Positions 5,009-44,557 of a DNA stretch of 64,000 nt are shown here, one piece after another (the first letter of the stretch is position 1; every line of letters starts with the position of its first letter). The stretch is taken from contig JAPOVS010000054.1 in the NCBI GenBank assembly GCA_026708055.1, positions 61,697-125,696 of the forward strand, written 5' to 3'. Under the pieces are notes generated by a model. It saw only the letters and a list, made by a program, of their open reading frames with translations. It searched no databases and was not told the DNA's origin. This DNA is from a bacterium (GTDB lineage Bacteria; Actinomycetota; Acidimicrobiia; Acidimicrobiales; CATQHL01). A program made the position numbers and the translations under genes.

Positions 5009-5009
5009 A

Positions 5010-15688: not shown

Positions 15689-17458
15689 TCAACAGCCGCC
15701 GTCGGCGAACGGATTGGAGTTTCTGGGCGGCGTGAGGCTCGGATTCATGAGGAAGTCGCTCCGGCACAGGCCGCCGAACTCTCCCATCAGATTCGACATG
15801 AGTGTGAGATTCCCCACGTTGAACAGCAGATGCCAAAGCGACGCCCCGTCGGTGACGTTGTCGGTGTACCAGGCGGGCACCTCCCCGGCCAGCCCACTGC
15901 GCAGGATGCTCTTCTCCTGCTCGGTGGGCGCATCGGGAGTGCCCGCGCAGGAGGACCCCGGTCCGTAGTACGTCAAAGGGGCTTCGGGAAAACGAGGTGC
16001 ATCATCGTGTCGGCGATGACCTCCTCGCCGCCTGCCCGGCAGCCGGGATAGTTGACGGCGAAGTACAGCTGAGTCGCCCCCCAGGCCCTGTTCGGTGTTA
16101 ATGCGGTGGCCTGGTCGTACACGTGAGCCAACTCGTGGACGCCGACGTGCAGCAACTGTTGCATGGTGCGCTCGCCCAGGTCGGTACCGAGTGCTACCTG
16201 CGATGTCCGGCACTCGAACGTACCCGCATCGAAGAACCCACAACTGACACTGGCGACCCCACCGGATGCCGCCTCGAAAAGTCGGACATCGTCGCGGACG
16301 TGGTCCCAGGCGATGCGCAACCACGGGAACTCCCCCTCGTTCCGGCGCACGACATCATCCATGGCCTCGCGGAACGGACCGGGGTCGATCCTCCATTCCT
16401 CGCTGCTCCAGTCGGGCACGGTGAGAGTGGGGATCACCGTCGGCCGGCCATCCAGCCCCTTCGCTCCCGGTGCCAGGACTTCCGCAGGCGTCAAACGTTG
16501 CTCGGTGTCGCCGACGCCGAGTTGCCCGTAACGATTGTCGCCCCAGCACAGAACCTCGCGCTCCGCCGTGACTGCGCAGGCATGCGAGCCGTCCCAGAAA
16601 GTGCGGCTGCCGACGCTGATCGCGACCACATCGCTGACGTTTCGCAGCTGCTCAGCCCGCGATCTCTGCTCCCTCGTGCCGATGCCCAGTTCGCCCGCGG
16701 CGTTCGCTCCCCAGCAGGAGACCGTCCCGTCCCGGTGCAGCGCGCAGGAGCTGTAGTGGCCCGTGTCCACGGCCACCGCGTCGGTGATGCCGAGCACCGC
16801 GGTTGGCGAGAGTCCTCGTGCCGTCCGCCTTCCTGCACCGAGCAGTCCACTCCGGGAGACCACCGTGGCGCCCCCGTGGAAGTACGCCCTGTCGCTCCCC
16901 CAGCAGGAAATCCCGCCCGACCTCTGCACAGCACAAGTGAAAGTACTGCTCGGTGACACCGAGACCGCATCGTCGATACGGCGCACCTTCACCGGCGAGA
17001 GACGCTCCGACCTCGTTCCGTCGCCGAGTTGTCCGTCGTCGTTGTAACCCCAGCAGGAGGTGGAAGCTGCCCGCCGCGACCAGAGCAGCGCCGGGTTCCG
17101 GCGGAGGTACCTGCGGCGTCTCGGACGGACTCGCGGCGGGCGCAGGGACGGTCACCGTCAGGGTTGAACTCGCCAGCCAGGGCCCCACGCCGGCGGTGGC
17201 GGGGAAGAACCGGCGCGACGGCAACAGCCGCTCGCCCCACGAGCCGTCGGCGTCGCGCTGCTGCAAGCCGAACTCGACGCGACCATCATCCAGGCGCCGC
17301 GCCACGATGCGCACGTCCACCTCCGACGCCCCGCCGGCCGACTCCTCAACGCCCTCCTGCGCCGAACCAGCCGAAGGGATCGCACTGACGGTCAGCACGG
17401 CGATCAACACCGCGGCCGCCGGGCGGACGAACCGCTGAGCGATTGACGACCTCCGCAT
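15689..17458 (-). pseudogene. secreted N-module + RCC1 propeller + HExxH C-terminal domain protein, disrupted by two 1-nt frameshifts
   Basis: Three ORF pieces (16652-17458, 15973-16992, 15689-16324) together are colinear with the 23287-25890 product. The frameshifts are near 17060 (ttccacCtcctgctgg) and near 15998 (gttttccc). Confidence 0.75.
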
Positions 17459-17537
17459 GCTCAGTAACCCCCTCTCGGTGCTGCAGGCAAGGGCATCGCC
17501 TGATCGACGATTGCTTCCGTGACCTCCGCCGGCTTGC

Positions 17538-18740
17538 CTATTGACCCTTCCGGCGGTTGGTCCAGTAGTGCTTGCGGATGTGTACGGCGACGTTGCGGGG
17601 GTTGTCGCGCCAGCACTGCAGCGGGTCGTAGCCGTCGTGCGCCAGGCACATGTTGCACGAGACGCACGCGACTCCTCCGGTGCGGCCGGCCTCCAGCTTG
17701 CGCACCAGGTCCGGTTCCCTGATGAAAGGCCGTGCTATCGCCAGGAAGTCGGCGTCGCCTGAGGCGAGGATGTCCGTCATCGTCTCTGTCGTCCGCACGC
17801 CTCCCACGAGAATTACCGGCAGCCCCGACGCCTCCTTGACGGCGCGGGCGAACGGTCGGTAGTAGGCCTCGGCGCCCGCCGGCTGCCTGGCGCGCTGGAC
17901 CAGCAGGTTGCGCCACGCCTGGGCGCGGTCCACCGCCACATAGGGACGGATGTTCTCGAAGTAGCTGCGCATCACGCCGTAGGTGGTCTCGAAGCCGTCG
18001 ATGCCTCGCTCGGCCAGGCCGCGGGCCCGCGCGAGCGACTCGTCGCGCTGCAGGCCCCCTGCCACCGAGTCCTCCACGCTCAGGCGGGCGGTCACGGGGA
18101 GGTCGCTGCCGACCGCGGAACGCACCGCTTCGGCCACCTCGAAGAAGAACCGGCTGCGCCGCTCGGCGTCGCCGCCCCAGCGGTCGTCGCGGGTGTTGGC
18201 GTGCGGCGAGCAGAACTCCGAGATGAGGTAGCCGTTGCCGCCGTGGATGTGGATGCCGTCGAATCCCGCCTCCGCGGCCCGACGGGCGGCCGCCCCGAAC
18301 GCCTCCACGAGACTGCGGATCTCCCCGTCGCTCAACTCTTCGGGCTGGATGGTGTACATGGCGTTGGGCACCGGCGACGGCGCCACCGGCACAATGGCCG
18401 ACATCATCGTCTGGCTCCCGCAGTGGCCGATCTGGGCGAAGATCCGCCCGCCGGCCTCGTGGACCGCCTCGGTCGCCCGCCGGAGGGCGGGGATGACCCG
18501 ATCGTCGTGGATCCCCGTCTGGTTGGCGCTGGCCTGCCCGCGGGGGTCCACGTACATGTGCCCGGTCAGCGCCAGCCCCGCTCCCCCCTCGGCCAAGCGC
18601 CGGTACAACTCCACGAAGGAGTCGTAGATCACCCCGCTCGGCGAGGCCATCGTCTCCGAGGTGGCCCCGCGCACGATCCGGTTGGGAATATCCAAGGACC
18701 CGATCCGGCCCGGTCGGAGGTAAAGGGGCGCGGAGGTCAA
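17538..18740 (-). CDS. NADH:flavin oxidoreductase, Old Yellow Enzyme family
   Basis: OYE/2,4-dienoyl-CoA reductase-like TIM barrel (IHIHGGNGYLISEF) with a C-terminal Cys cluster ACVSCNMCLAHD. Confidence 0.8.
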   Translation of the reverse strand: MTSAPLYLRPGRIGSLDIPNRIVRGATSETMASPSGVIYDSFVELYRRLAEGGAGLALTGHMYVDPRGQASANQTGIHDDRVIPALRRATEAVHEAGGRIFAQIGHCGSQTMMSAIVPVAPSPVPNAMYTIQPEELSDGEIRSLVEAFGAAARRAAEAGFDGIHIHGGNGYLISEFCSPHANTRDDRWGGDAERRSRFFFEVAEAVRSAVGSDLPVTARLSVEDSVAGGLQRDESLARARGLAERGIDGFETTYGVMRSYFENIRPYVAVDRAQAWRNLLVQRARQPAGAEAYYRPFARAVKEASGLPVILVGGVRTTETMTDILASGDADFLAIARPFIREPDLVRKLEAGRTGGVACVSCNMCLAHDGYDPLQCWRDNPRNVAVHIRKHYWTNRRKGQ

Positions 18741-19522
18741 CGCCGTCTCAGGAGTGTGAGAAGCTTGGCATGAAGGCTGTCTATCAGTTCGTCCAGCGCC
18801 GGGCTGTTCGGGGCGATGAGCTGAGTTCGACGCATGTTCGCCCAGTCGCCGCTCAGCACATCGAGGTGGGTGTAAGTGCTGTCCAACAGGGATTCCAAGA
18901 GGTTCTCAGGCTGCGAGGCAATATCCGGAAGGTCTGAATCCGATGCCAGGAAGGAACCAAGGGCTGCCATGCAGTCGACGTCGGGTGAGTCCAATAGCCG
19001 GTCGAGGTCGTAGAGGTCGCGGGCCGCGAGCCTGCTGGGGTGGGCCAGACATGCCAGTTTGGCGGCGGTGATCGCCTCCAGGGTGATTCCCGTAACCCGG
19101 ATGTCATCGCCGAGTCCGGGATACCGAGGCTGAAGCCTCCAGAGCCGGACGCCATCCCCCGGCGGAGCGTCGGGCACAGTGATGTCGATGCGCAGGCGGT
19201 GGCGCGTGTCTGCGGGCGCTTCCCACAGAATGTCCAGACGGCCAGAGCGGTCGCGGGCCCGCAGTGACCGCCCCGAGGCTCGCGACGCCTCGTCCAGGAC
19301 GTTCTCAATGGTGTGGACAATCTCGTGGCGCTCCGCGGACGAGTGCCCCGACCAGTCGAAATCCAGGTCCTCCGAGTAGCGATAATCCATCTTCCAGCAG
19401 GTGCGCAACAGCGTGCCGCCTTTCAGGACAAGGCGATGCCGTCGGCGCTCCCGGGCCGCCAGAGCGGCGAGGAGAAAATGCTGAATGCGGTCGCGTTCGA
19501 CCGCGCACGTTGGCGAGTCCAT
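18737..19522 (-). CDS. abiEii: AbiEii/AbiGii-family nucleotidyltransferase toxin (type IV TA)
   Basis: LVLKGGTLLRTCW..YRYSEDLDFDW and RDLYDLDRLL motifs. The ATG at 19522 lies 7 nt after the upstream gene's stop. Confidence 0.75.
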   Translation of the reverse strand: MDSPTCAVERDRIQHFLLAALAARERRRHRLVLKGGTLLRTCWKMDYRYSEDLDFDWSGHSSAERHEIVHTIENVLDEASRASGRSLRARDRSGRLDILWEAPADTRHRLRIDITVPDAPPGDGVRLWRLQPRYPGLGDDIRVTGITLEAITAAKLACLAHPSRLAARDLYDLDRLLDSPDVDCMAALGSFLASDSDLPDIASQPENLLESLLDSTYTHLDVLSGDWANMRRTQLIAPNSPALDELIDSLHAKLLTLLRRR

Positions 19523-19529
19523 CCGCGGG

Positions 19530-20267
19530 CTAGGTAAGCAGTTCCGACGCCAACGCGTCAGGACCGTACGGCCACACGACTCTCCGGGCCGTGTCGTACC
19601 ACGCCCAGCGATTCGCCCGGCGGGGACGGAAGCCGCTGAGCTGGATCCATCGATCGCCGCGGCCGGCGCGGGGTACGAGTTCGGCCCACTGCGGCGGCGG
19701 GCTGCCTTCGAGCTGTCCGCGCACGCTGCTGGCCGCCAGCCCCGCCGCAACCGAAGCCACCCTGCGCAACCCGGCCCGCAGACACAGCTCCTCGGACAGC
19801 GCAGCCACCGAATCGGGGTCGAATTCTGGAGCGCCCAGCAGGACCGCATCAGCGATGTACTCCACGGCACGGGGGACCCGGTGAGGGAACTGCGCGCACT
19901 CCAACAGCGCACGCGCCGGACTCGACATCCAGGTCCGTCGGGTGATCCGCCGCGAGCCCGCCTCGACGACATGCTCCGGTTCTGTGATCACCCGAAGCCC
20001 CGTCGGCAGCGGCCCCTTCAGTACCCGCTTCGACGACGCCACGGTGGTGCCGTGGATCAGCGCGACGCCTGCCTCACACAAGGCCGTGTCGTAGGAGATT
20101 CGCCTCGATCCCGGCCCGAGCAGGTTGTCGAGTCGCTCCTCGAGCGCCGGGCTCCAATGCATGGACGACACCTGCCGGGCCGCATCCGGAGGGCCGCCCG
20201 CAACGGGCAGGGCCGCTGCCCGCATGGTAGCCAGCGGGGCGACCGAGACCGGAACGACACTCCCCAC
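19530..20267 (-). CDS. abiEi: AbiEi-family antitoxin/transcriptional regulator
   Basis: Called from its position immediately upstream of abiEii, its size, and a C-terminal region similar to AbiEi proteins. Confidence 0.6.
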   Translation of the reverse strand: MGSVVPVSVAPLATMRAAALPVAGGPPDAARQVSSMHWSPALEERLDNLLGPGSRRISYDTALCEAGVALIHGTTVASSKRVLKGPLPTGLRVITEPEHVVEAGSRRITRRTWMSSPARALLECAQFPHRVPRAVEYIADAVLLGAPEFDPDSVAALSEELCLRAGLRRVASVAAGLAASSVRGQLEGSPPPQWAELVPRAGRGDRWIQLSGFRPRRANRWAWYDTARRVVWPYGPDALASELLT

Positions 20268-20530
20268 AGTCCAAGGCTAACCCAATCCCGCCGCCGCACT
20301 CCGAACCCGGGGCACCCTGCGAGGCTCACCCCCGCGGGCAGCGACCCGTAGTCCGCGGCCAGCCACCGCGCCCGAACGGCTCGGAGGATTTTACTCTGGA
20401 CGCTCGTCCTGTGTTAGCCTGCCTGGCCGCTGCGCTGCTTCTTGCGTCTTGCAGCGCTCCCCGACACTTATGGAGGATTCGATGTTCGATAAGACGAGGC
20501 GCGCGGTGACCGCGCCTGGATCGGCGGCTG

Positions 20531-20544
20531 CCCCCCCCCCCCCC
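20531..20544. repeat. C14 homopolymer tract
   Basis: Fourteen consecutive C between an SD+ATG (20472-20484) and the signal-peptide coding region of the 20606-22999 ORF. Confidence 0.9.
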
Positions 20545-20605
20545 GTTAGCTGAACGAGCGCGGCGGCGCCGTGGGGGCGTTGCTGCTGCAATCGCGCTCG
20601 CGGCG

Positions 20606-22999
20606 TTGATCGGCGGGCTGATCGTCCTCACTTCGCCCGCGGCGGCACAGGAGCCGACGACCGCCGAGGAGGGTTCCGAGGTCCGCATCGCGGCGCGCCG
20701 ACTGGACGACGGTCGAATCGAGTTCGCGCTGCAGCAACGCCAGGGCTCATCCTGGGGACAGCGAGAGTTGCCGCGCTCGCGGTTCTTCCCCACCGACGCC
20801 GCTGCGGGCCGCTGGCTGTCCAGCACGCCGCTGGAGGTCGGCGGCACCGAGGTCCGCATCGCGGCGCGCCGACTGGACGACGGTCGAATCGAGTTCGCGC
20901 TGCAGCAACGCCAGGGCTCATCCTGGGGACAGCGAGAGTTGCCGCGCTCGCGGTTCTTCCCCACCGACGCCGCTGCGGGCCGCTGGCTGTCCAGCACGCC
21001 GCTGCGCCTCGGTGCTGCCAGCGCCGCCGACGCCCGCTTCACCGCCATCAGCATCGGCGCGCATTATTCGTGCGGGTTGCGCTCCGACGGCGCCGTCGTC
21101 TGCGTCGATGATCGCGGCTTCAAGATCGACGTGCCCGACGGGCGCTACACCGCCGTCGAGGTCCACCGCGAACTCGATGCGATGTGCGCGCTCGCCGCCG
21201 ACGGCACCGCCACCTGCTGGGACCACCTCGGCGAACAGGTCGACGCGCCCGCGCCAGAGGGGGGGTTCACCGACATCAGCCTGAGCGAGGCGGTCGGCTT
21301 GTGGTCCTTCGATGACTTCGCGTGCGGACTCCGCGCCGACGGTACCGCTACCTGCTGGGAACTCGGAGAGCACGGCCAATACCACGGCCAATACGACGTC
21401 TCTGGCGGCCCGTACACGTCCATCGACGCAACTGGAAGCTGCGGGCTGGAACGCGAGGGCGCGATCTCCTGCTGGACCCCCAGCGGGGAAGTCGACTACA
21501 CGGTCGAAGGGCCGTTCACCGAAGGGCCGTTCACGGTTCGCGCCGGCGAGGGCTGCGGGCTCCGCAGCGACGGCACGCTCGCCTGCTGGTCGCAAGCCTA
21601 CGGCGACGGCAGGCTACCGGGCGACGACACGGAACCGCCTGAAGGATCTGAAGGGCGCTTCAGCGCCGTCAGCAGCGGTGAGGGCAGTTCCTGCGGCCTA
21701 CGCCTCGACGGCACAGTCAGGTGCTGGGGCCGCTCCCGAATGGCACCCTCGGGGCGGTTCAGCGCCGTGGACGTGGGCTACCAGAACTCCTGCGGACTGC
21801 GGACCGACGGCTCAGTGGCCTGCTGGGGCTCTGACGCGGGCGGCCTCGTGAGCGACGCGCCCGAGGGCCGGTTCACCGCCATAGCCGTACACGGCGACGA
21901 GCCGAATCCTCGCGACGTCCACGGACACGGAGAGGAACACAGGGACGACCGTGCCTGCGCGCTGGCGACCAACGGCACCATCTCCTGCTGGGGCCGCATC
22001 GACAGGGGGCCATCGGACGCCGTGACCGGCCAATTCACCGAACTCGTGACTCTTGCATTCGCTAGCTGCGCTCTGAGCGTCGACGGCGAAATCGGCTGCT
22101 GGGGAACGCGCCCTGCATTATGGGCCGGGGGCGACACGCCCGTTCATGCACCTGCCGGGCGGTTCGTCGCAATCAGCATCTCAGGCGGGTTCAACGTGGA
22201 CGTTCCACGGGGGCTCGGCGGCGGATCGCGCGGGATAATTGAGATTTGCGGCGTGCGCGTCGACGGGACCATCGCCTGCGAGCACGGGTTGCCTCTGGGG
22301 CTCACCAGCGACCCGCCCGACCGCAGATTCACCGACATCAACGGCGATTGCGGCCTGCGCGCCGACGGCACCGTCACCTGCTGGAACTACGGGAGCGTGA
22401 AGTCCGAGTTCGACCTGAGCGACGTCCGGCTCACGACCATCGACGGCGACTGCGGCCTGCGCGCCGACGGCACCATCATCTGCTGGGACTCCACCGGCGT
22501 GCAGCGCGACGGGCCCGCCGAAGGGCGCTTCACCGCCATCGATGGCAGCTGCGGCCTGCGCGCCGACGGCGCCATCATCTGCTGGCGATACGACGACGAG
22601 GAGACCTACGGACCGGAAGGGCGCTTCACCGCCATCGATGGCAGCTGCGGCCTGCGCGCCGACGGCGCCATCATCTGCTGGCGATACGACGACGAGGAGA
22701 CCTACGGACCGGAAGGGCGCTTCACCGCCATCGATGGCAGCTGCGGCCTGCGCGCCGACGGCGCCATCATCTGCTGGCGATACGACGACGAGGAGACCTA
22801 CGGACCGGAAGGGCGCTTCACCGCCATAAGCGGTAGCTGCGGCCTGCGCGCCGACGGCACCGTATCCTGCTACGACCTCGAGGCGCCCGACGGGCTGTAC
22901 AGCAGCCTGACCGGTTATGGTTCCCAGGCGTGCGCCATTCGATCCGACGGGGGTGTCAGGTGCTGGGGAAGCGTCCAGGTGCTCGTCCCGGGGAGATGA
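20606..22999 (+). CDS. secreted N-module (x2) + CGLRxDG/RCC1-like repeat propeller protein
   Basis: Two EVRIAARRLDDGRIEFALQQR..WGQRELPRSRFFP..GRWLSSTPL units, then at least 20 C(G/A)LRxDG..CW repeats. The frame is open back to 20510 and encodes an RRRR-hydrophobic signal peptide with no canonical start. Confidence 0.75.
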   Translation: MIGGLIVLTSPAAAQEPTTAEEGSEVRIAARRLDDGRIEFALQQRQGSSWGQRELPRSRFFPTDAAAGRWLSSTPLEVGGTEVRIAARRLDDGRIEFALQQRQGSSWGQRELPRSRFFPTDAAAGRWLSSTPLRLGAASAADARFTAISIGAHYSCGLRSDGAVVCVDDRGFKIDVPDGRYTAVEVHRELDAMCALAADGTATCWDHLGEQVDAPAPEGGFTDISLSEAVGLWSFDDFACGLRADGTATCWELGEHGQYHGQYDVSGGPYTSIDATGSCGLEREGAISCWTPSGEVDYTVEGPFTEGPFTVRAGEGCGLRSDGTLACWSQAYGDGRLPGDDTEPPEGSEGRFSAVSSGEGSSCGLRLDGTVRCWGRSRMAPSGRFSAVDVGYQNSCGLRTDGSVACWGSDAGGLVSDAPEGRFTAIAVHGDEPNPRDVHGHGEEHRDDRACALATNGTISCWGRIDRGPSDAVTGQFTELVTLAFASCALSVDGEIGCWGTRPALWAGGDTPVHAPAGRFVAISISGGFNVDVPRGLGGGSRGIIEICGVRVDGTIACEHGLPLGLTSDPPDRRFTDINGDCGLRADGTVTCWNYGSVKSEFDLSDVRLTTIDGDCGLRADGTIICWDSTGVQRDGPAEGRFTAIDGSCGLRADGAIICWRYDDEETYGPEGRFTAIDGSCGLRADGAIICWRYDDEETYGPEGRFTAIDGSCGLRADGAIICWRYDDEETYGPEGRFTAISGSCGLRADGTVSCYDLEAPDGLYSSLTGYGSQACAIRSDGGVRCWGSVQVLVPGR
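20678..21004 (+). repeat. tandem duplication, 171-bp unit x2 (N-module)
   Basis: 20678-20833 and 20849-21004 appear identical at the DNA level. Confidence 0.85.
22523..22810 (+). repeat. perfect tandem repeat, 96-bp unit x3
   Basis: GGGCGCTTCACCGCCATCGATGGCAGCTGCGGCCTGCGCGCCGACGGCGCCATCATCTGCTGGCGATACGACGACGAGGAGACCTACGGACCGGAA starts at 22523, 22619 and 22715. Diverged units lie on both flanks. Confidence 0.9.
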
Positions 23000-23286: not shown

Positions 23287-25890
23287 TCAGCAGCCCCCGT
23301 CTCTGAACGGGTTGGACCTCCGCTGGGGCACCAGGGTCCAGTTCATGAGGAAGTCCGTGCGGCACAGGCCGCCGAACTCGCCCATCAGGTTCGCCAGCAG
23401 GGAAAGATTCGTCGGCAGGCCCCGGAACGTCCACCAGAACGCGGCGCCGTCGGTGAAGGTGCGCGTGTACCAGGCCGGCACCTCGCCCGCCAGGCCGCTG
23501 CGGAGGACCTCCAGGTCCTCCTCGGCCGGCGTCGGCGGTGTCCCCAGGCACGCCGATGCGGATCCGTAGTACGTCAAAGGAGCATCGGGCAACACCAAGT
23601 GCAGCATCGCGTCGGCGATGGCCTCCTCGCCGCCGGCCAGGCAGTCCGGGTAGTTCACCGCGAAGTACATCTGGGTCGCGCCCCACGGCCGATTCGGCGT
23701 CAAGGCCGTCGCTTGATCGTACACATGGGCCAACTCGTGGACCCCGACGTGCAGAAGCTCCTGCATGCTCCTCTCGCCCAGGCCGGTGCCGATCGCCATG
23801 CTGGACGTGTCGCAGCCGTATTCGCCCGGCGCTGTGAACCCGCAGCTCACGGTCGCGGTGCCTCCATCGGCCAGGTCGAACACTCGAACGTCGTCGCGTG
23901 CATGGTTCCAGGCGATCCGCAACCAGGGGAAGGCAGCCTCGTTGGCCGCGACGAGCTCGTCCATGGCGGCGCGGAACGGGCCGGCGTCTACCTGCGCATC
24001 CTCGTCGTTCCAATCGGGCACGCCGATGGCGGGAATCACCGTTCGGGGATCGTCGTCGGTGGCGGCCGGCGCGACTCGCGTCGGCTCCAAGCGCGCCTCG
24101 GTGTCGCCGACGCCCAGCTGCCCGTAGCGGTTGTCGCCCCAGCAGGCGACCTCGCTGGTCACCGTGAGGACACAGGCGTGCGAGCGCTGATAGGGGTTCT
24201 GACTGCTGACCGTCAGCGCCACCACGTCGCTCACCCCCCGGAGCCTGCGGGGTTCCCGCCGGTGCTCGGTCGTGCCGATCCCGACTTCGCCCGCCGGGTT
24301 CGCACCCCAGCAGGAGACGTCCCCGTCACGGTGCAACGCGCAGGAGCTCCATGCGCCCGTCGCGACGGCCACCGCATCGGTGATGCCGACGACCGGGGTG
24401 GGACGCGACAACGTCGAATCGCGCTTTCCGGCGCCCAGAGTGCCGAAGACGAACACCGTGTCGCCGGCCTCGTAGAAGGCGGCGTAGTTGGACCCCCAGC
24501 ACGAGACTGCGCCAGAGCGCCGCACGGCGCACGAGAAACTGTGCCCGGCCGACACCGAAGCGGCGTCTTCGAGTCCGCGCACACGGACGGGCGCAAGCCG
24601 CTCGGTGCTCGTGCCGTCGCCGAGTTCCCGGTGGTCGTTGTTCCCCCAGCACGACACCGCGCCGTCGGCGTGCACGGCGCACGTGTGCCAGGCGCCGGCG
24701 CCTATCGACGTCACGTCGCCCAATCCGGAGACCCGCGCGGCTCGGGGGCGGGACTCTCCGGTGCCGTCGCCGAGCTGCCCGACCTCGTTGTCGCCCCAGC
24801 AGGAGGCGCCGCCGTCGGCATGCACCGCGCAGGCGTGCCGCGCCCCGACCGAGACGTCGACGGCATCGTTCACGCCCCGCACCCTCACCGGCGACGGGCG
24901 ATCGGTCCACGTTCCGTCACCGATTCCTCCGAAGTAGTTGTCACCCCAGCACGACACGGTCCGATCACTGTGAAGGACGCACGTCGGGCCGTCCGCGGAG
25001 CCGGCGGCGGAGTCGCCGACGCTGATGGCCACGACATCGTCGAGGCCTTGCACCGGTACCGGTACGAGAGCCCGGTGCAAGGACGGATCGCCCAGCCGCA
25101 GCGACGCGCTGTTGTCGCCCCAGCAGTCCACGCCGCCGTCGGCGTTGACCGCACAAGTGTGGTAGCCGCCGGCCGCGATCAGGGCGGCGCCTCGTTCGGC
25201 CGCAATGGGCGCGTCGCCGCGTCGGGGGGCCTCGCCCGCCGAGTCGCCCCCGGCCTGCAGCCGCAGGGCCGAACTGGAAAGCCAGCGCCCCTCGGCGGCG
25301 TCGGCCGGGAAGTACCGCCGCGACGGCAACAGGCGCTCGCCCCAGTCGCTGCCGGAGCCCCGCTGCTGCAACCCGAACTCCACCCGCCCGTCGCCCAGGC
25401 GCCGAGCCACGACCCGCACCACAGTGTCCGCCGGGAGCCCTGACACCCGCAGGGCCGAACTGGAGAGCCAGCGCCCCTCGGCGGCGTCGGCCGGGAAGTA
25501 CCGCCGCGACGGCAACAGGCGCTCGCCCCAGTCGCTGCCGGAGCCCCGCTGCTGCAACCCGAACTCCACCCGCCCGTCGCCCAGGCGCCGAGCCACGACC
25601 CGCACCACAGTGTCCGCCGGGAGCCCTGACACCCGCAGGGCCGAACTGGAGAGCCAGCGCCCCTCGGCGGCGTCGGCCGGGAAGTACCGCCGCGACGGCA
25701 ACAGGCGCTCGCCCCAGTCGCTGCCGGAGCCCCGCTGCTGCAACCCGAACTCCACCCGCCCGTCGCCCAGGCGCCGAGCCACGACCCGCACCACAGCGTC
25801 CGCCTCCTGGCCGACCGCCGCCGAGGGAACTGCCGCGCCCAACACCGCGACGACCGACGCCGCGACCAGAGCCTTGCCGATCCGCCTCAC
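23287..25890 (-). CDS. secreted N-module (x3) + 7-blade RCC1 propeller + Cys-rich HExxH (zincin-like) C-terminal domain protein
   Basis: Signal peptide, three 62-aa units, seven (C/S)WG.N..GQLGDG blades, HELAH encoded at 23725-23739, and a C-terminal NPFRDGGC. Confidence 0.85.
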   Translation of the reverse strand: MRRIGKALVAASVVAVLGAAVPSAAVGQEADAVVRVVARRLGDGRVEFGLQQRGSGSDWGERLLPSRRYFPADAAEGRWLSSSALRVSGLPADTVVRVVARRLGDGRVEFGLQQRGSGSDWGERLLPSRRYFPADAAEGRWLSSSALRVSGLPADTVVRVVARRLGDGRVEFGLQQRGSGSDWGERLLPSRRYFPADAAEGRWLSSSALRLQAGGDSAGEAPRRGDAPIAAERGAALIAAGGYHTCAVNADGGVDCWGDNSASLRLGDPSLHRALVPVPVQGLDDVVAISVGDSAAGSADGPTCVLHSDRTVSCWGDNYFGGIGDGTWTDRPSPVRVRGVNDAVDVSVGARHACAVHADGGASCWGDNEVGQLGDGTGESRPRAARVSGLGDVTSIGAGAWHTCAVHADGAVSCWGNNDHRELGDGTSTERLAPVRVRGLEDAASVSAGHSFSCAVRRSGAVSCWGSNYAAFYEAGDTVFVFGTLGAGKRDSTLSRPTPVVGITDAVAVATGAWSSCALHRDGDVSCWGANPAGEVGIGTTEHRREPRRLRGVSDVVALTVSSQNPYQRSHACVLTVTSEVACWGDNRYGQLGVGDTEARLEPTRVAPAATDDDPRTVIPAIGVPDWNDEDAQVDAGPFRAAMDELVAANEAAFPWLRIAWNHARDDVRVFDLADGGTATVSCGFTAPGEYGCDTSSMAIGTGLGERSMQELLHVGVHELAHVYDQATALTPNRPWGATQMYFAVNYPDCLAGGEEAIADAMLHLVLPDAPLTYYGSASACLGTPPTPAEEDLEVLRSGLAGEVPAWYTRTFTDGAAFWWTFRGLPTNLSLLANLMGEFGGLCRTDFLMNWTLVPQRRSNPFRDGGC
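25262..25800 (-). repeat. tandem repeat, 186-bp unit x3 (N-module)
   Basis: Unit landmarks CGCAGGGCCGAACTGGA at 25262, 25448 and 25634. The copies are nearly identical at the DNA level. Confidence 0.85.
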
Positions 25891-37475: not shown

Positions 37476-38033
37476 ATGAGCGAAGAGCAGTCCGGGTTCG
37501 CCCGCGGCGCCGCCGAGACCCGCGCGGCGGTCGGGATGACCGGCGCCGTGGACGCGGCGAGCCGCCCGGACGTCTATTCCGACCATCCCACCACGGCGCG
37601 CTGGACCCACGTGGCCCTGCCGTGCGCCGACATCGACGCCTCCATCGACTTCTACACGAAGTTCACGCCGATGGAGCTGTTGGACAAGCGCACCGACGCC
37701 CTGGGCCACGGCGCCTGGCTGGGCCATTCCGACGCCGCCGAGCGGCCCTTCATCCTGGTGCTCATCGAGTTCTTCGCCAGCAGCGGCCAGGAGGGGCTCG
37801 GCCTGCTGAAGCCGTTCGCCCACCTCGGCATCGAGCTCCCCACCCTCGAAGCCGTCGACGAGATCGCCGCCCGCGGCGAGGCCGCTGGCTGCCTGAACAT
37901 GGCCCCCACCGAGATGCCCCCGCCCGTCGGCTACATCTGCGCCCTCAACGACCCCGACGGCAACGTCATCGAGTACTCCTACGACCAGGGCGTCTACTCC
38001 ACCGCCAAGACCGTCTGGGGCAACGGCGACTGA
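37476..38033 (+). CDS. VOC family protein, copy 1
   Basis: ATG at 37476. Contains WTHVALPCADIDASIDFYTKFTPM...LNDPDGNVIEYSY. Confidence 0.75.
   Translation: MSEEQSGFARGAAETRAAVGMTGAVDAASRPDVYSDHPTTARWTHVALPCADIDASIDFYTKFTPMELLDKRTDALGHGAWLGHSDAAERPFILVLIEFFASSGQEGLGLLKPFAHLGIELPTLEAVDEIAARGEAAGCLNMAPTEMPPPVGYICALNDPDGNVIEYSYDQGVYSTAKTVWGNGD
37498..38033 (+). repeat. 536-bp direct repeat, left copy
   Basis: Matches 40083-40618. I saw only 3 mismatches, all within the first about 70 bp. The encoded proteins and the antisense ORFs are otherwise identical. Confidence 0.9.
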
Positions 38034-38092
38034 AGCGATCGGCGGCGATGTCGGACGGGATAGTCCTTGTGGCTGGTGAGAGATACGTCGAT

Positions 38093-38120
38093 TTACTCAT
38101 GTAGTTCTTGATCTATACTG
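38093..38120 (+). promoter_or_regulatory. candidate sigma-70-type promoter (TTTACT-16 nt-TATACT), possibly leaderless transcript
   Basis: The only AT-rich patch upstream of the ankyrin gene. The -10 element ends 9 nt before GTG 38130. Confidence 0.3.
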
Positions 38121-38129
38121 CTCGGCCGC

Positions 38130-39422
38130 GTGGACGGGGATGCTGTCTTGCGGACGTTTGTGGCCGGTTCGACGGGAGGGGTTCTGATGATCGCGCGGTT
38201 CGTTCGGGTCCTGTGGAGTAGGTCGGTATGGGCGGTCGGGTCGCCTCGGGGGACGAGGAGTTCTGGTCCGCAGGCAGTCTCGATCCGGCGCGGATTGTCC
38301 TTGGCGGCGGCATGCGTGTTGGTGCTGGCCGTTGTGGTGGGTTCGGTGACGGTCGCCGCAGCCGATCCGGTCGGGGCGCAGGACGGTACCGGTGAGGTAC
38401 GGATCGTGGCTCGACGCCTGACCGATGGTCGGGTGGAGTTCGGTTTGCAGGCGCGCACCGCGGGCGATTCATGGGGTGAGCGGTTGCTGCCGTCGCAGCG
38501 GTTCTTCCCGACCTCGGCGTCGGTCGGTCGCTGGTTGGTCTCCTCGCCGCTGGATGTGGCGCCCGGAGAGGTGCGCATCGTGGCGCGCCGCTTGGCGGAT
38601 GGTCGGGTGGAGTTCGGTTTGCAGGCGCGCACCGCGGGCGATTCGTGGGGTGAGCGGTTGTTGCCGTCGCGGCGGTTCTTCCCGACCTCGGCGTCGGTGG
38701 GTCGCTGGTTGGTCTCCTCGCCGCTGCGGCCGGGCGCGGCACCCGCGCAATGCCCCACCGGAACGACCGAGGAGACCTGGATCGGCGAGGCCTTCTGGCG
38801 TGCGGCGAACGTTGCGCGGGTACGCCTCGAGTTGCGCTGCGGTGCCGACCCCAACGCGGTGAAGGTCTACGACCCTTCGGACTATGACCCTCCGGCCGGA
38901 TGCGGCGACAATTGCGTCGAGCCCCCCTATGAGTTGGAGTACTCGGTTCTGCACTCGGCGGCGGTGTACAACGCGGATCCGGCGGTGATCCAGGTTCTAC
39001 TGGACGCCGGCGCCAACATCTGGGCGGATTCAGTCCTTGGGTCGCCTCTGCATCTTGCGGCCGCACACGGCAATCTGGTGACGGTTCGTGCGCTGCTGGA
39101 CGCCAGCGCCGATTTCGAGGAGCCGCGCGGCTTCTACCACTGGATGCCTCTGCACAGCGCGGCGGCAAGCAGTCACGATCCGGCGGTGATCCAGGTGCTG
39201 CTGGACGCCGGCGCAAATATCGAAGCGAGGGGCGTCGGCAGCTGGACGCCGCTGCACTGGGCGGCCTCATACAACCAGAATCCGGCGGTGATCCAGGTGC
39301 TGCTGGACGCCGGCGCTGACCTCGAGGCGAGGGACGCTGAAAACTGGACGCCTCTTGATCTGGCGCGGCAAAGAGGCGGCGCCGCAACCATCCGGGTGCT
39401 TGAGGAGGCGGCCGGTTCCTGA
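38130..39422 (+). CDS. secreted N-module (x2) + ankyrin-repeat protein
   Basis: Hydrophobic signal, two EVRIVARRL.DGRVEFGLQARTAGDSWGERLLPS.RFFPTSASVGRWLVSSPL units, then about 4-5 ankyrin repeats (SPLHLAAAHGN...LLDAGA...TPLHWAA). The start is uncertain (38130 or 38187). Confidence 0.8.
   Translation: MDGDAVLRTFVAGSTGGVLMIARFVRVLWSRSVWAVGSPRGTRSSGPQAVSIRRGLSLAAACVLVLAVVVGSVTVAAADPVGAQDGTGEVRIVARRLTDGRVEFGLQARTAGDSWGERLLPSQRFFPTSASVGRWLVSSPLDVAPGEVRIVARRLADGRVEFGLQARTAGDSWGERLLPSRRFFPTSASVGRWLVSSPLRPGAAPAQCPTGTTEETWIGEAFWRAANVARVRLELRCGADPNAVKVYDPSDYDPPAGCGDNCVEPPYELEYSVLHSAAVYNADPAVIQVLLDAGANIWADSVLGSPLHLAAAHGNLVTVRALLDASADFEEPRGFYHWMPLHSAAASSHDPAVIQVLLDAGANIEARGVGSWTPLHWAASYNQNPAVIQVLLDAGADLEARDAENWTPLDLARQRGGAATIRVLEEAAGS
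38394..38726 (+). repeat. tandem repeat, 174-bp unit x2 (N-module)
   Basis: 38394-38560 and 38568-38726 are highly similar at the DNA level. Confidence 0.8.
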
Positions 39423-39583
39423 GCGGCCGGCGCTGCGCGGCTACGCCGTTGCTGCCGTGCCGCAGTGGGGTTCGGGACAAAGCCTTCGCCATGGCTGTCT
39501 CCTCACATCGAACTCGAACCGCGGACTGAGCTTCCCCCCACCCCCATCATCGCGGACTCAGCCCGCTCAAGTCCGAAGAGCCA

Positions 39584-39871
39584 CTATTCCTCGATAAGTC
39601 TTCGCATCGCGTCCTTGACGCTGCGCATCTCCCGGAGACTGTGGAGACCAGTCAGCGCACCCACCATGGTGGTCCCGAACACGGACAGGCGGAGCGTTTG
39701 CAGCAGGCCGATGGAGAAAGTGGCCATCATCCCCCACGGACCGCTGGCGGCGAGATTGTCTCCCAACTCCCTGAGTCGTCTCATGACGCTGCAAGCGTCC
39801 AACATTCCCTGATCGAGGAGGCTCCAATCTCCGCCGAGATCGCCCTCCGGATCGAGCATCCGATCGATCAT
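39584..39871 (-). CDS. small hypothetical membrane protein (possibly 5'-truncated)
   Basis: First ATG at 39871. Hydrophobic C-terminal half GPWGMMATFSIGLLQTLRLSVFGTTMVGALTGL. The ORF continues upstream into the antisense strand of VOC copy 2. Lies in a lower-GC patch. Confidence 0.3.
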   Translation of the reverse strand: MIDRMLDPEGDLGGDWSLLDQGMLDACSVMRRLRELGDNLAASGPWGMMATFSIGLLQTLRLSVFGTTMVGALTGLHSLREMRSVKDAMRRLIEE

Positions 39872-40082
39872 CGGCTCGATCAGGTCGTCCTGATTCCAGC
39901 AATCCTCCAGTTCCTCCCGGAGTTGCCTCCTCAATTCCTGCCGCAGTTCCCGATCGAGGCGCTCGAACTCCGCCTCACCGTCGAACCTGCAATCGGCCGC
40001 TCCCCTGGTCTCGCAGTGTGCCTCCAGGTCTCCGACCAGGACGGCCTCACCGCAGACCTCGGCATAGCCCGAGACCGTCGCG

Positions 40083-40618
40083 TCGCCCGCGGCGCCGCCG
40101 AGACCCGCGCGGCGGTCGGGATGACCGGCACCGTGGACGCGGCGACGCGCCCGGACGTCTATTCCGACCATCCCACCACGGCGCGCTGGACCCACGTGGC
40201 CCTGCCGTGCGCCGACATCGACGCCTCCATCGACTTCTACACGAAGTTCACGCCGATGGAGCTGTTGGACAAGCGCACCGACGCCCTGGGCCACGGCGCC
40301 TGGCTGGGCCATTCCGACGCCGCCGAGCGGCCCTTCATCCTGGTGCTCATCGAGTTCTTCGCCAGCAGCGGCCAGGAGGGGCTCGGCCTGCTGAAGCCGT
40401 TCGCCCACCTCGGCATCGAGCTCCCCACCCTCGAAGCCGTCGACGAGATCGCCGCCCGCGGCGAGGCCGCTGGCTGCCTGAACATGGCCCCCACCGAGAT
40501 GCCCCCGCCCGTCGGCTACATCTGCGCCCTCAACGACCCCGACGGCAACGTCATCGAGTACTCCTACGACCAGGGCGTCTACTCCACCGCCAAGACCGTC
40601 TGGGGCAACGGCGACTGA
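40083..40618 (+). repeat. 536-bp direct repeat, right copy
   Basis: See 37498-38033. Confidence 0.9.
40121..40618 (+). CDS. VOC family protein, copy 2 (5'-truncated duplicate)
   Basis: Protein identical to copy 1 except for two substitutions. Lacks the copy-1 start; the first in-frame ATG inside the repeat is 40121. Confidence 0.6.
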   Translation: MTGTVDAATRPDVYSDHPTTARWTHVALPCADIDASIDFYTKFTPMELLDKRTDALGHGAWLGHSDAAERPFILVLIEFFASSGQEGLGLLKPFAHLGIELPTLEAVDEIAARGEAAGCLNMAPTEMPPPVGYICALNDPDGNVIEYSYDQGVYSTAKTVWGNGD

Positions 40619-40644
40619 CGGCGCCCTGCGGCTGCGCCGAGCCC

Positions 40645-43584
40645 TCAACTCGGGCCGAAGCGGGTGTTTCCCTGCCCCCAGCAGACGAGGGTCGCGTCGG
40701 TGCGCAGCGCGCACGAATGTCTCACGCCGGCGGCGATGGCGGTGTAGGAGCCGTCGGGCGCGTCGGCCTGCCCGTGGCCGTTCAGACCCCAGCAGACGAC
40801 AGAGCCGTCGGCGCGCAGAGCGCACGAATGTCGCCCACCCGCGGCGATGGCCGTGTAGGAGCCGTCAGGCGGATCGGCCTGACCCGAGTCGTTCTCCCCC
40901 CAGCAGACGGCCGAACCATCAGTCCGCAGAGCGCACGAATGAACGTCGCCAGCGGCGATGGCGGTGTAGGAACCGTCGGGTGGATCGGCCTGACCCGAAC
41001 CGTCGTCCCCCCAGCAGACGGCCGAACCATCAGTCCGCAGAGCGCACGAATGACTGCCCGAATAATCGCCGCCGGCGGCTATGGCGGTATAGGAACCGTC
41101 GGGCGCGTCGGCCGTCTGACCCGAGTAGTTGTCGCCCCAGCAGACGGCCGCACCATCGGTGCCCAACGCGCACGAATGCCGATAGCCGGCGGCGACGACG
41201 GTGTAGGCGCCCTCGGGAGCGCTGGATTGCCAAAGGTTGTCCAGGCCCCAGCAGACGATCGAGCCGTCGTCCCCCAAGGCGCACGAATGCCACCTGCCGG
41301 CGGCGATTGCGGCATAGGCGCCATCGGGAGCGTCGGTTTGTCCGCTGCTGTTCAGACCCCAGCAGACGATCGAGCCGTCGGCCCTCAAGGCGCACGAATG
41401 CCATCCGCTGGCAGCGACGGCGGTGTAGGCGCCGCTGGGCGGCAATGCCTGCCCGTACGTGTCGAGGCCCCAGCACTCGACACGGCCGTCGGTGTCCAGC
41501 GCGCACGAATGGTCAAAGCCGGCGGCAATGGCGGCGTACGTGCCGTCGGGCGGGAATTCGTGCCCGAAGGTGTATTGACCCCAGCACACGAGTGCGGCGT
41601 CGGTGCGCAGCGCGCACGAATGGTCAAAGCCGGCGGCGATAGCGGTATACGTGCCGTCGGGCGCGTCGGTCTGCCCGAACCCGCCATAGCCCCAGCAGAC
41701 AACGGAGCCGTCGGCGCCCAGCGCGCACGAGTGCGACCTGCCAGCGGCGACGGCGGTATAGGCGCCGTCGGGCGCGTCGGTCAGCCCTTCGCTGTTCTGA
41801 CCCCAGCAGACGACAGAGCCGTCGGCGCCCAATGCGCACGAATGCCACCCACCCGCGGCGACGGCGGTATAGGCGCCGCCGGGCGCGTCGGTCTGCCCGA
41901 ACCCGCCATAGCCCCAGCAGACGACAGAGCCGTCGGCGCGCAGAGCGCACGAATGTCGACCACCCGCGGCGATGGCCGTGTAGGGGCCGTCAGGCGGGTC
42001 GGCCTGACCCGAGTCGTTCTCCCCCCAGCAGACAGCCGAACCATCAGTCCGCAGCGCGCACGAATGAACGTCGCCGGCGGCGATGGCGGTGTAGGAGCCG
42101 TCGGGCGCGTCGGTCTGCCCTTCGTCGTTCTCCCCCCAGCAGACGACAGAGCCGTCGGCGCGCAACGCACAGAAGTGCCGAGCGCCGGCGATAGCTGTGT
42201 AGTAGTCGGCGGGGTCGGTGGGCTGGTCCAGGTCGGCGGATCCCGGGAGTCCGGCGGAGGCTAGATCGGCAGATGGAACACAGACCGCCAATCCCTCGGC
42301 GAGCGCTTCTGGCACAGTGGTCTCGGCACCGACGGTGTCCAGAACGGCCCAGTCGAAGTTGATCGACCAATCCAACAAGCAGGACCGGGCGCCCGCACTC
42401 AAGTCTTCTGGTGACCCGCCAGCCTCCATGAACAACATGTCCAGGAACAGGTCCGGGGCGCACTGGCCGAGACTGGAAGCCAGGGCCGCGAACGCGCCGG
42501 CGTGGGAGGAGATTGATTGGGCGGCAAGGTCGAGGCCGATGGTCCAGATGCGCAAGCAAGTCCAGTCCTCATCGGCCAGCGCGTCGGGATCCACACCGAG
42601 CACCTCGAGCAGGACAGGCAGGACGGGGTCCGGAATGCAGCCGAATATGCCGGCCAGGAAGGCCAGATACTCATCGGCGGCAGCGACGTCATCGGACATC
42701 CCGCCAGAGGGAGTCCAGCCGAGGTCAGCAAACCATTCCCGGATGCAGGCACGCTCCTCGTCTTCCACTTGTTCCCACTCGACTCCCAACAGGAAAAGCG
42801 TCGCGATCACTTCCAGGTCCGGGATGCAGTCCGTCGGGTCCGGAGTCAACGCCTCGATCGCCCCGGGCTCGTCGCCGGCGGCAGCCAAAGCAGCCCAGTC
42901 GAAACCGGCCATTCTCTCTTGCAGGCAGGTTCTCTCGTCGCTGCTCGGCTGATAACCCAGATACACCTCGAGGCTTGCAATGGAGCCGGCGAGAAGCACC
43001 GATGTCGCGACTTCAGGCTCGAAACAAGCGAACAGCGCGACATCGTCTGGCCAGAGTTCGATGCTCACAACTCTCTGTCGCAGCAGCGACTGCAACGGTC
43101 CGTCGTCCAGAACGCGCCGAACGCAGGATTGCTCCTCGAACGAAAGTTCGTCGAACACGTCCTGCCAGACGGTGTCGCCGTCTATCTCGATGCTGCCGGT
43201 CGCACCGGCCTCGGTCGTCTCCGGCACCGTGCCCGCGGGAGAGGGGAGTCGGTCCGGGGACGGAGCGGCCAGGGTCGCAGGCGTCGTCGCAGCAGCAGTC
43301 GCCGGCGGGGGCGACTCGTCCACTGACTGTGTGGGGGGCGACGCCGTAGCGGCCTGCGTTGGCGGACGGCGGGGCCGCGTGGATGGCGACTCGTCCACTG
43401 ACTGTGTGGGGGGCGACGCCGTAGCCCCACCGACGTCCTGCCGTCTGCCGTCTCCGCATGTCACAAGCACCGCGACTACTCCCAGGCACACCAGAATGAG
43501 AGTCGAGAGTCGCCGGCTCCTCGACCGGGCGCTGAACCGCCGAGAGCGGCGCGACATCCACGCGGCGCGGGGAGGGTCGCCCAC
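40645..43584 (-). CDS. large lipoprotein: Pro/Thr linker + Cys-containing helical repeats + about 14 RCC1_2-type repeats
   Basis: Lipobox LVTCG. Four to five repeats of C.(R/E).W...(D)W....C(I/A/V)PD, then Y(T/A)A(I/V)AAG..HSCAL..DGS.VCWG.N..GQ.D.PDG repeated about 14 times. Confidence 0.8.
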   Translation of the reverse strand: MGDPPRAAWMSRRSRRFSARSRSRRLSTLILVCLGVVAVLVTCGDGRRQDVGGATASPPTQSVDESPSTRPRRPPTQAATASPPTQSVDESPPPATAAATTPATLAAPSPDRLPSPAGTVPETTEAGATGSIEIDGDTVWQDVFDELSFEEQSCVRRVLDDGPLQSLLRQRVVSIELWPDDVALFACFEPEVATSVLLAGSIASLEVYLGYQPSSDERTCLQERMAGFDWAALAAAGDEPGAIEALTPDPTDCIPDLEVIATLFLLGVEWEQVEDEERACIREWFADLGWTPSGGMSDDVAAADEYLAFLAGIFGCIPDPVLPVLLEVLGVDPDALADEDWTCLRIWTIGLDLAAQSISSHAGAFAALASSLGQCAPDLFLDMLFMEAGGSPEDLSAGARSCLLDWSINFDWAVLDTVGAETTVPEALAEGLAVCVPSADLASAGLPGSADLDQPTDPADYYTAIAGARHFCALRADGSVVCWGENDEGQTDAPDGSYTAIAAGDVHSCALRTDGSAVCWGENDSGQADPPDGPYTAIAAGGRHSCALRADGSVVCWGYGGFGQTDAPGGAYTAVAAGGWHSCALGADGSVVCWGQNSEGLTDAPDGAYTAVAAGRSHSCALGADGSVVCWGYGGFGQTDAPDGTYTAIAAGFDHSCALRTDAALVCWGQYTFGHEFPPDGTYAAIAAGFDHSCALDTDGRVECWGLDTYGQALPPSGAYTAVAASGWHSCALRADGSIVCWGLNSSGQTDAPDGAYAAIAAGRWHSCALGDDGSIVCWGLDNLWQSSAPEGAYTVVAAGYRHSCALGTDGAAVCWGDNYSGQTADAPDGSYTAIAAGGDYSGSHSCALRTDGSAVCWGDDGSGQADPPDGSYTAIAAGDVHSCALRTDGSAVCWGENDSGQADPPDGSYTAIAAGGRHSCALRADGSVVCWGLNGHGQADAPDGSYTAIAAGVRHSCALRTDATLVCWGQGNTRFGPS

Positions 43585-43588
43585 AGGC

Positions 43589-44557
43589 TCAGGACAGGTG
43601 GTCCAGCAGCAGGTTGACCAGGTCGCTCTCGAACTGGACGGCGCCGAGGATGCGCCGGCCGGTGGTGTCGAGCAGCCAGAAGCTGGACCAGGCGGGCGCC
43701 GGGAAGTGGTAGTAGTTCGTCGGCACCCGGGAGTCGCTCAACAGCATCGTGAAGGTGATCCCGTAGGTGTCGACGAAGGCCTGGTTCGTCGCCAGGTCAC
43801 CGGTCGAGCCGATGCCGACGACCCGGAGCCGGTGGGAGTTCTCTCGAGCGAACTGCTCGATGGCCGGAGCATGGCTCTGGCAGGTGCCTCAATAGGGGCT
43901 CCACAGCCAGAACAGCAGCGGCGTCCGGCCGGTCACGACCGAGCGGATGTTCGCTGTCTCGCCGGTACTCACGTCGACCATGTCGAAGTCGAGCACGTCC
44001 TCGGAGACCTGCACCACGCCCAGGTCGCTTCCGGCGGTCCTCGCGGCGAGCGTCACGGTGACCGGCGCACTGGCCAGCCAGCGGCCCGCCTCCGCGTCTG
44101 CGGGGAAGAACCGCCGCGCCGGCAGGAGCCGCTCGCCCCAGGTCTCACCGGGAAGGCGTTTCTGCAGCGCGAACTCGATGCGATCATCGGCCAACCGCTG
44201 CACGACCACGCGCACCTCCCCCGCCACGTAGGCGGAGGTGGTGCCCGCGTCGGCGGTGATCGTCAACGCAGAGCCGGCTAACCAGACGTCGGCCTCTGCT
44301 CCCGGAGGCAGGAACCGCCGCGGCGGCTCCGCCGACGCGCTCCACGGCTCACCATCCTCGCGGAACTGCACGACGAACTCGACTCGGCCGTCCTCGTGGC
44401 GCTGCGCCAGGATCCGGGCCTCGAGTTCGTGCGCGGCCGGCTGCTCGGTCACCTCTTGGGCGCGGACGGCGACGGGAAGCCCGGCCACGCCCAGCCAGGC
44501 CAGCAGGCCCACCATGACGGCCCGCCAGAGTCGTCCCCGGAGCGGGCGGGACCTCAT
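43589..44557 (-). CDS. secreted N-module (x2) + TlpA/ResA-like thioredoxin-fold protein with in-frame TGA at the CxxC nucleophile (candidate selenoprotein; alternatively a pseudogene)
   Basis: The ORF stops at TGA 43889-43891 in ..PLLFWLWSPY-TGA-GTCQSHAPAIEQF... The same frame stays open for 99 more codons with a redoxin-like sequence, ending at TGA 43589-43591. Confidence 0.6.

Follow-up and report, generated by a model that had tools for sequence, protein, structure and literature searches.

A 64-kb stretch of DNA from a bacterium of the Acidimicrobiales (contig JAPOVS010000054.1; the whole stretch is referred to as the window) carries six open reading frames (ORFs), here named genes A to F, that encode one to three copies of a unit of about 58 residues near the N-terminus of proteins with the marks of export. 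This unit is a real, previously undescribed extracytoplasmic repeat. A hidden Markov model (HMM) built from the units and run over all six reading frames of the window found exactly 12 copies, scoring 70-101 bits each (E 2e-23 to 5e-33), and besides these no match above 0 bits anywhere in the 64 kb. Because all other matches score below 0 bits, chance similarity of the copies is excluded, and the count of 12 copies in six ORFs given in a preliminary description of this DNA is borne out. The carrier genes, with the units as delimited by the HMM, are:

Gene A, 15689..17458, minus strand: decayed gene; signal peptide, one unit (17147-17317, 101.6 bits), truncated RCC1 propeller and HExxH C-terminal domain, in three reading-frame pieces
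Gene B, 20606..22999, plus strand: two identical units (20678-20845, 20846-21013), RCC1_2-type propeller (Pfam RCC1_2, 1e-23) with 96-bp repeats
Gene C, 23287..25890, minus strand: signal peptide, three near-identical units (25252-25422, 25441-25608, 25627-25794), RCC1 propeller, unannotated HExxH domain ending NPFRDGGC
Gene D, 25994..28273, minus strand: signal peptide, two diverged units (27809-27979, 27992-28162), RCC1 propeller, HExxH domain
Gene E, 38130..39422, plus strand: signal peptide, two units (38394-38561, 38568-38729), ankyrin repeats (Ank, 7e-23)
Gene F, 43589..44557, minus strand: signal peptide, two diverged units (44048-44218, 44252-44422), thioredoxin-fold (Redoxin) domain read through an in-frame TGA

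Alignment of the 11 distinct units gave the consensus xEVRIVARRLxDGRVEFGLQQRxxGxxWGERLLPSRRFFPxDAxxGRWLxSSxLxV, which agrees with the one previously read by eye and contains 12 invariant columns (R4, R9, E16, F17, R22, W28, P34, R37, P40, A43, W48 and L49). The unit size of 57-62 residues proposed at that time holds for the unit-to-unit spacing in genes B to E and fails for gene F, in which the spacing is 68 residues. At the DNA level (window GC about 70%), Tandem Repeats Finder reported the units as direct repeats in gene B (171 bp x1.9, 100% identity), gene C (186 bp x3.0, 98% identity) and gene E (174 bp x1.9, 92% identity), which marks the copies inside these genes as recent duplications of DNA; the two units of gene D are mutually diverged, as are those of gene F, and units of different genes are about 45-70% identical as protein. 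The near-identity of copies inside one gene is what a DNA repeat, a low-complexity region or chance similarity without meaning for the protein might produce, and we consider the likelihood of such an origin negligible: units of different genes have diverged as protein yet keep the invariant residues, 1,605 protein clusters keep the unit at the protein level, its predicted fold has high confidence and viral contigs gave no match. The alignment, the HMM scan of the window, the cluster search and the model of a unit pair (the last two described below) together refute it.

Relation to known domains and predicted fold of unit pairs

The conjecture that the unit fits no named family withstood searches at the level of both sequence and structure. 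The unit region of the full window proteins had no match in Pfam-A (2025) or NCBIfam 20, and when 11 units were scanned singly at E<=10 the sole match was to DUF1918 in one of the 11 (E=0.062). PHROGs yielded nothing significant for the units (best E=0.012), one-unit and two-unit alignments found no match among PDB sequence profiles at E<=10, and a literature search for motif strings and for such a module turned up no mention. Homologues carry the name 'hypothetical protein' in the sources that name them; look-ups by exact sequence of the proteins of genes C and E returned nothing, and a cluster look-up supplied no names. The homologues are numerous: a search of 1.84 billion cluster representatives (50% identity clusters) with a 29-unit profile matched 1,605 clusters at E<=1e-3, 1,243 at E<=1e-10 and 342 at E<=1e-30, with one to five matched stretches per protein.

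When a single unit was modelled with AlphaFold2 (AF2) from a 29-sequence alignment, the mean predicted local distance difference test score (pLDDT) was 74.6 and the predicted template-modelling score (pTM) was 0.46, and the model comprised a beta meander of three strands, with the C-terminal third poorly defined. The two units of gene D modelled together (35-sequence alignment) folded far more confidently, with a pLDDT of 94.9 and a pTM of 0.87, into an all-beta structure in which the C-terminal segments are now confident. In this model the RFFP...GRWLxSS segment of each unit appears to pack on the partner unit, and the folding domain would be the pair of units, predicted to be compact and pseudo-symmetric, rather than the single unit. 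Unit counts and unit types agree with the pair as the folding domain. Of 293 proteins, retrieved with a bias towards multi-unit ones, 245 have two units and 12 have four, and 47 of 57 ORFs from Acidimicrobiia or unclassified metagenome-assembled genomes (MAGs) carry two; moreover, one subfamily has a fixed heterotypic a-b pair of units, with one member arranged a-b-a-b. A single unit is found in 10 of 13 Dehalococcoidia/Chloroflexota ORFs, and these single-unit proteins may pair between chains. The Dehalococcoidia carriers encoded at seven loci (L009, L030, L035, L037, L041, L043 and L044) are mostly of this single-unit kind.

Foldseek comparisons placed the pair model near no known structure. 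In the PDB no significant neighbour emerged (best E=0.034, template-modelling score (TM) at most 0.33, root-mean-square deviation (rmsd) about 10 A), nor did one in BFVD (best E=0.13), so that against neither database did the model reach the TM>0.5 or Foldseek E<1e-3 that we took to denote structural similarity. UmbA4 (9oee_A) appeared in both PDB lists with TM values of 0.33-0.46 and rmsd values of 5.5-9.8 A and was treated as noise, and the single-unit model, whose confidence is only moderate, was uninformative in Foldseek. No significant match to an already characterised repeat was thus obtained by sequence or by structure. The predicted pairing into one domain and the lack of a PDB or BFVD relative of the modelled fold are points that this analysis adds, along with the family's size, its occurrence in sponge-symbiont genomes of two phyla and the corrected gene models described below. 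Compositionally, the unit is rich in Arg (14.3%) and poor in Lys (0.7%), with only three Cys in 489 distinct units; its median isoelectric point is 11.1 and its mean net charge +2, and it has invariant Trp, Phe, Arg and Glu positions and no catalytic motif.

The closest functional parallel is the SLH domain (PF00395), which binds pyruvylated secondary cell-wall polymer. SLH repeats are likewise about 55 residues long, fold together in tandem into one pseudo-symmetric domain and often stand straight after the signal peptide of unrelated exported proteins of bacteria without an outer membrane, for which they serve as a non-catalytic tether. However, SLH domains are helical and form triplets (a pseudo-trimer), whereas the unit is all-beta in the AF2 models and its usual copy number is two; the SLH HMM does not match the unit although the same HMM detects SLH elsewhere in some carriers, in which SLH is thus present beside the unit. 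CWB2, LysM, GW and SH3b modules resemble the unit as basic, tandem, non-covalent surface-retention modules found on diverse enzymes and adhesins of Gram-positive bacteria, but differ from it in repeat length, motif and pairing, and the unit matches none of them by HMM or Foldseek. Carbohydrate-binding modules and lectins share with it a small all-beta build, conserved Trp, Phe, Arg and Glu residues and varied payloads, yet the best PDB matches by Foldseek remained at E>=0.03, with the low TM and high rmsd given above, and no likeness to a known sugar-binding site emerged.

Export, payloads and habitat of the carrier proteins

Nearly all of the 150 best matches of the cluster search, like the window genes, begin with a hydrophobic signal sequence, which often closes in an Ala-rich stretch of the A-x-A-Q type (a heuristic reading of the sequence rather than a SignalP call), and in most of the 150 the first unit starts roughly 10-60 residues past this signal. 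Most of the exceptions look truncated at the N-terminus, their first residues falling within a unit or immediately ahead of one, and a few are long proteins without an evident signal. The 150 best matches are therefore not, in the main, cytoplasmic proteins lacking a signal, and the initial observation that the unit follows directly upon a signal peptide extends well beyond the window. A minority of carriers have their units at the extreme C-terminus, in several cases together with an N-terminal signal; giant proteins containing cadherin, Calx-beta and fn3 domains are among this minority. A subfamily of about 600 residues combines two C-terminal units with a conserved, unannotated N-terminal domain (motif TLTW...FDFEFDIxCGG) and is encoded, often as two or three adjacent paralogues, at ten loci (L016, L018, L019, L020, L026, L027, L028, L032, L033 and L036).

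The module is portable, as had been surmised: besides the 1,605 clusters, 38 partner Pfam families occur among 91 scanned matches. RCC1-like domains lead (25 proteins), followed by LRR (6), Trypsin_2 (6), SLH (4), ANK (3), CAP (2), fn3 (2) and Peptidase_M10 (2), with PD40, cadherin, Calx-beta and others at one each. A Dehalococcoidia protein encoded at locus L043 joins one unit through an acidic linker to a solute-binding domain of the ATP-binding cassette type (Peripla_BP_4, 9e-20), and a near-identical ORF is present at L044. Although the payloads are diverse, the assertion that the downstream domains in the window differ completely does not extend to gene B, whose propeller matches RCC1_2 and hence is not unrelated to the RCC1 propellers of genes C and D. 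The designation as an effector family likewise proved too narrow, because the solute-binding protein and the thioredoxin-fold protein of gene F are housekeeping envelope payloads. No sortase or secretion machinery adjoins the unit genes of the window, whose neighbours are ordinary metabolic or toxin-antitoxin genes, and clustering of the neighbouring ORFs of 55 loci (see below) yielded no conserved partner gene; the largest module-free 'family' among these neighbours may consist of antisense shadow ORFs of a high-GC genome.

These 55 loci came from a scan of one genome per GTDB species with two peptide patterns, based on a 5-sequence alignment, confirmed by tblastn and biased towards close relatives, and are distributed over 34 assemblies, all of them MAGs. 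By label, 18 of the assemblies are Acidimicrobiia/Acidimicrobiales (including Candidatus (Ca.) Aldehydirespirator), 13 are Dehalococcoidia/Chloroflexota and three are unclassified 'bacterium', and several genomes carry four or five loci. No relative of the module and no sign of carriage by phages was detected in the viral contigs that were scanned. At least 10 of the 34 MAGs belong to documented marine-sponge MAG sets: the SB06xx series is tied to Ircinia ramosa and the APA series to Aplysina aerophoba (PMC11706023), and a study of the microbiomes of Ircinia sponges (PMC9531527) includes the jk18x series. The IRC and COS series are named in a style like that of the sponge series, with the host not confirmed, and the MAGs labelled by universally unique identifier among the 34 lack host metadata. 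A further match comes from the A. aerophoba metagenome MKWU01, a homologue bears the name Ca. Poriferisocius, and over 3.8 kb the window shares 96.8% identity with COS4_bin_33, from a MAG series that includes documented sponge MAGs. We have the strong impression, short of a proof, that the unit family occurs only in Acidimicrobiia and Dehalococcoidia that live as sponge symbionts.

Large sets of eukaryote-like repeat proteins are a known trait of sponge symbionts, and the window, with ANK repeats in gene E and RCC1 propellers in genes B, C and D, contains such repeats in a sequence resembling a sponge-type MAG. The payload classes of most carriers (ANK, LRR, RCC1/WD40-like, cadherin, fn3) are those of the sponge-symbiont eukaryote-like proteins, and the genomes are of the same kind; the difference is that those classes are defined by their payload repeats, whereas the module shared here is absent from Pfam. 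Eukaryote-like domains were identified with Pfam models in the survey that describes the SB06xx and APA series (PMC11706023).

A putative surface tether and its alternatives

Our favoured reading, to which we assign a probability of about 45%, is that the unit pair is a non-covalent, polyanion-binding tether that holds exported proteins at the surface of the cell that produces them. A Sec-type signal peptide would export the carrier, with the unit pair then lying at the start of the mature protein; the basic, non-catalytic pair domain would bind a negatively charged polymer, most likely one of the producer's own envelope; and this binding would keep the payload at the surface of bacteria that have no outer membrane. 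Such a tether would work like tandem SLH or CWB2 wall-binding modules while being unrelated to them. The number of units changes quickly by tandem duplication and loss (tandem copies in one gene are 92-100% identical as DNA, and gene A has one unit versus two in its orthologue), and the module, with or without its payloads, would have spread among co-resident sponge symbionts of two phyla. We favour a ligand at the producer's surface because solute-binding and thioredoxin-fold payloads must stay with the producer, because the module usually stands at the start of the mature protein and because no sortase, secretion or other conserved partner gene adjoins the unit genes.

Several points weigh against the tether. 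Both ligand and binding are putative and the structure is a prediction; SLH, an established wall anchor, is present in the carriers P0052, P0135, P0141 and P0151, in which a second wall anchor looks redundant; Acidimicrobiia and Dehalococcoidia share the module though their envelopes probably differ; recovery from sponge-type MAGs only would be explained no less well by a ligand that the host supplies; many of the payloads (ANK, LRR, RCC1, cadherin, proteases) are of a kind usually thought to act on hosts; the 70% GC accounts in part for the abundance of Arg; and the unit-number statistics are biased by the way in which matches were retrieved.

Some of these same points feed the possible, if somewhat doubtful, alternative that the pair is a lectin-like adhesion domain, basic and rich in aromatic residues, which binds the sponge mesohyl (sulfated glycans, extracellular matrix) or host cell surfaces and would fasten adhesin domains, proteases and eukaryote-like payloads (ANK, LRR, RCC1) to the host. 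All genome matches are from Acidimicrobiia, Dehalococcoidia/Chloroflexota or unclassified MAGs, with at least 10 documented sponge MAGs, the MKWU01 match and the 96.8% identity of the window to COS4_bin_33 among the evidence for habitat; two phyla sharing the module suggests a habitat-wide ligand; and the unit accompanies SLH anchors as well as ANK, LRR and RCC1 and stands at the distal end of giant cadherin/Calx-beta/fn3 proteins. On the other hand, solute-binding and thioredoxin-fold payloads make little sense on a host matrix, the restriction in habitat rests on a narrow DNA-pattern scan with incomplete metadata, and Foldseek found no fold match to a known lectin or carbohydrate-binding module in the PDB. 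A bolder version, which we regard as unlikely, has the pair domain as a new fold that arose in, and spread horizontally among, sponge symbionts of the two phyla as a common lectin-like host-targeting handle; if true, this handle would amount to a shared molecular address system for contact between symbiont and host.

The confident packing of the units on each other in the pair model could also reflect oligomerisation or scaffolding, with units pairing within and between chains and odd-numbered proteins dimerising or forming a surface lattice, all without an external ligand. In favour of this, the 10 of 13 Dehalococcoidia/Chloroflexota ORFs with a single unit, and gene C with three, would need a partner from another chain. 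We nonetheless judge it improbable, on the grounds that pairing within the chain satisfies the fold in most proteins and that a secreted protein, once cleaved, would not be kept by pairing alone on a cell that lacks an outer membrane. A long shot, finally, is that the unit serves as a sorting tag that directs proteins into an export or attachment pathway dedicated to them, much as the C-terminal domains of the type IX secretion system or LPXTG and PEP-CTERM signals do. Its fusion to very diverse cargo and usually terminal position would suit a tag, but the unit occurs at either end and in one to five copies, is predicted to be a stable folded domain, accompanies Sec signal peptides of the ordinary kind and has no conserved neighbouring machinery gene in the 55 loci or the window.

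Carrier genes of the window and significance of the family

Comparison of the carrier genes with related loci shows rapid turnover of the unit family, because gene A is a pseudogene, unit duplications are fresh, gene E looks inserted and a 2.85-kb segment differs between otherwise collinear loci. By tblastn against the intact orthologue of 863 residues with two units (locus L001, 5617-8208), gene A is without one unit and residues 213-401 and has two frame changes; the same OYE-type flavin oxidoreductase adjoins both genes. The ORF at 16652-17458, previously taken as the gene, is thus only the N-terminal fragment of a decayed gene. Between gene A and gene B lie an AbiEii gene (18737-19972, minus strand), encoding the toxin of a type IV toxin-antitoxin system, and an ORF that overlaps it (19530-20267, minus strand; no Pfam match).

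Other features of the carrier genes are:

Poly-C(14) tract, 20531..20544, plus strand: between a GTG at 20506 and the gene B frame, the GTG being one nucleotide out of register
HExxH C-terminal domain, 15689-16400, 23287-24050, 25994-26760 and 29507-30250, all minus strand: four paralogous copies
In-frame TGA of gene F, 43889-43891, minus strand: SPY-TGA-GTC, candidate selenocysteine codon of a UxxC redox motif

The TTG start listed for gene B (20606) truncates a complete in-frame signal peptide that lies upstream, ERARRRRGGVAAAIALAALIGGLIVLTSPAAAQE. The window has two homopolymers of at least 12 bases, the C14 tract at 20531-20544 and a G12 tract at 9350-9361, both located 5' in genes for putative exported proteins, the latter in a Cys-rich ORF (9298-10419); in two related loci a module-bearing ORF has such a tract at its start, G11 or C10 (L013, 5831-5841; L034, 5121-5130). 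Such homopolymers at gene starts could mean phase variation or homopolymer sequencing error. The most likely start of gene D is the ATG at 28273, the one originally annotated, because the 38 residues upstream of its first unit (MGLVSRSL...) are identical in gene D and its L023 orthologue. Gene E is bracketed by a direct repeat of about 535 bp (37498-38033 and 40083-40618, about 99% identical) that duplicates the 3' part of a glyoxalase gene. Both gene E and a neighbouring gene for an RCC1_2 protein of 979 residues are absent from the syntenic MAG locus L056 and look like recent insertions.

This neighbouring protein (40645-43584, minus strand) has 14 RCC1_2 repeats (111-bp DNA period) and no unit, and its different, Cys-containing N-terminal region carries short PPTQSVDESP repeats. 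A paralogue of 662 residues (29507-31495, minus strand) has a signal peptide, an RCC1 propeller and an HExxH domain, again without a unit, and lies inside a 2.85-kb segment (about 29437-32289) that the COS4_bin_33 locus L023, otherwise collinear, lacks. In four paralogues the RCC1 propeller is followed by the same C-terminal domain of about 250 residues, with HELAHVYD as its HExxH motif and a ...NPFRDGGC ending; it had no Pfam match and no PDB sequence match and may represent a new metallopeptidase-like family. Elsewhere in the window, a thiamine pyrophosphate (TPP) riboswitch (RF00059, 61.5 bits) is present at 4913-5022 on the plus strand.

Gene F is a candidate exported UxxC selenoprotein rather than a broken gene, because its in-frame TGA and the frame downstream of it are conserved in five loci and redox-domain alignments span the TGA. 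The frame stays open for 99 codons past the TGA, and when the product is read with Cys at this position, the Redoxin, AhpC-TSA and Thioredoxin Pfam alignments all run across the site. The TGA, the protein sequence of the 99 downstream codons and a common stop are conserved in the five orthologous loci (L056-L060), a conservation that led us to reject a frameshift at the end of a thioredoxin gene, and in 5/5 loci a hairpin (UCGAGC-AGUUC-GCUCGA), a possible SECIS element, follows about 31 nt after the UGA, with no covariation seen. For almost every one of the 69 clusters that the read-through domain retrieved, the match is confined to the portion before the TGA, and the window has no tRNA gene. 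Gene F resembles the thioredoxin-fold bacterial UxxC selenoproteins in that the TGA occupies the first Cys position of the redox motif, the frame beyond it is conserved and a hairpin follows; it differs from them in the fusion of this domain to a signal peptide and a two-unit module.

To our knowledge, the way in which the eukaryote-like proteins of symbionts are positioned or delivered is largely unknown, and the published surveys that we know of tally Pfam-annotated domains only. The present analysis finds that one undescribed module, with a predicted fold that has no detectable relative, is shared by over 1,600 clusters of exported proteins, from two phyla that are dominant among the symbionts. 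A database entry for the module would annotate thousands of proteins that are now labelled hypothetical, and the pair, as a small expressible domain, would offer a handle on whether symbionts display these proteins on their own surface or plant them on the host.

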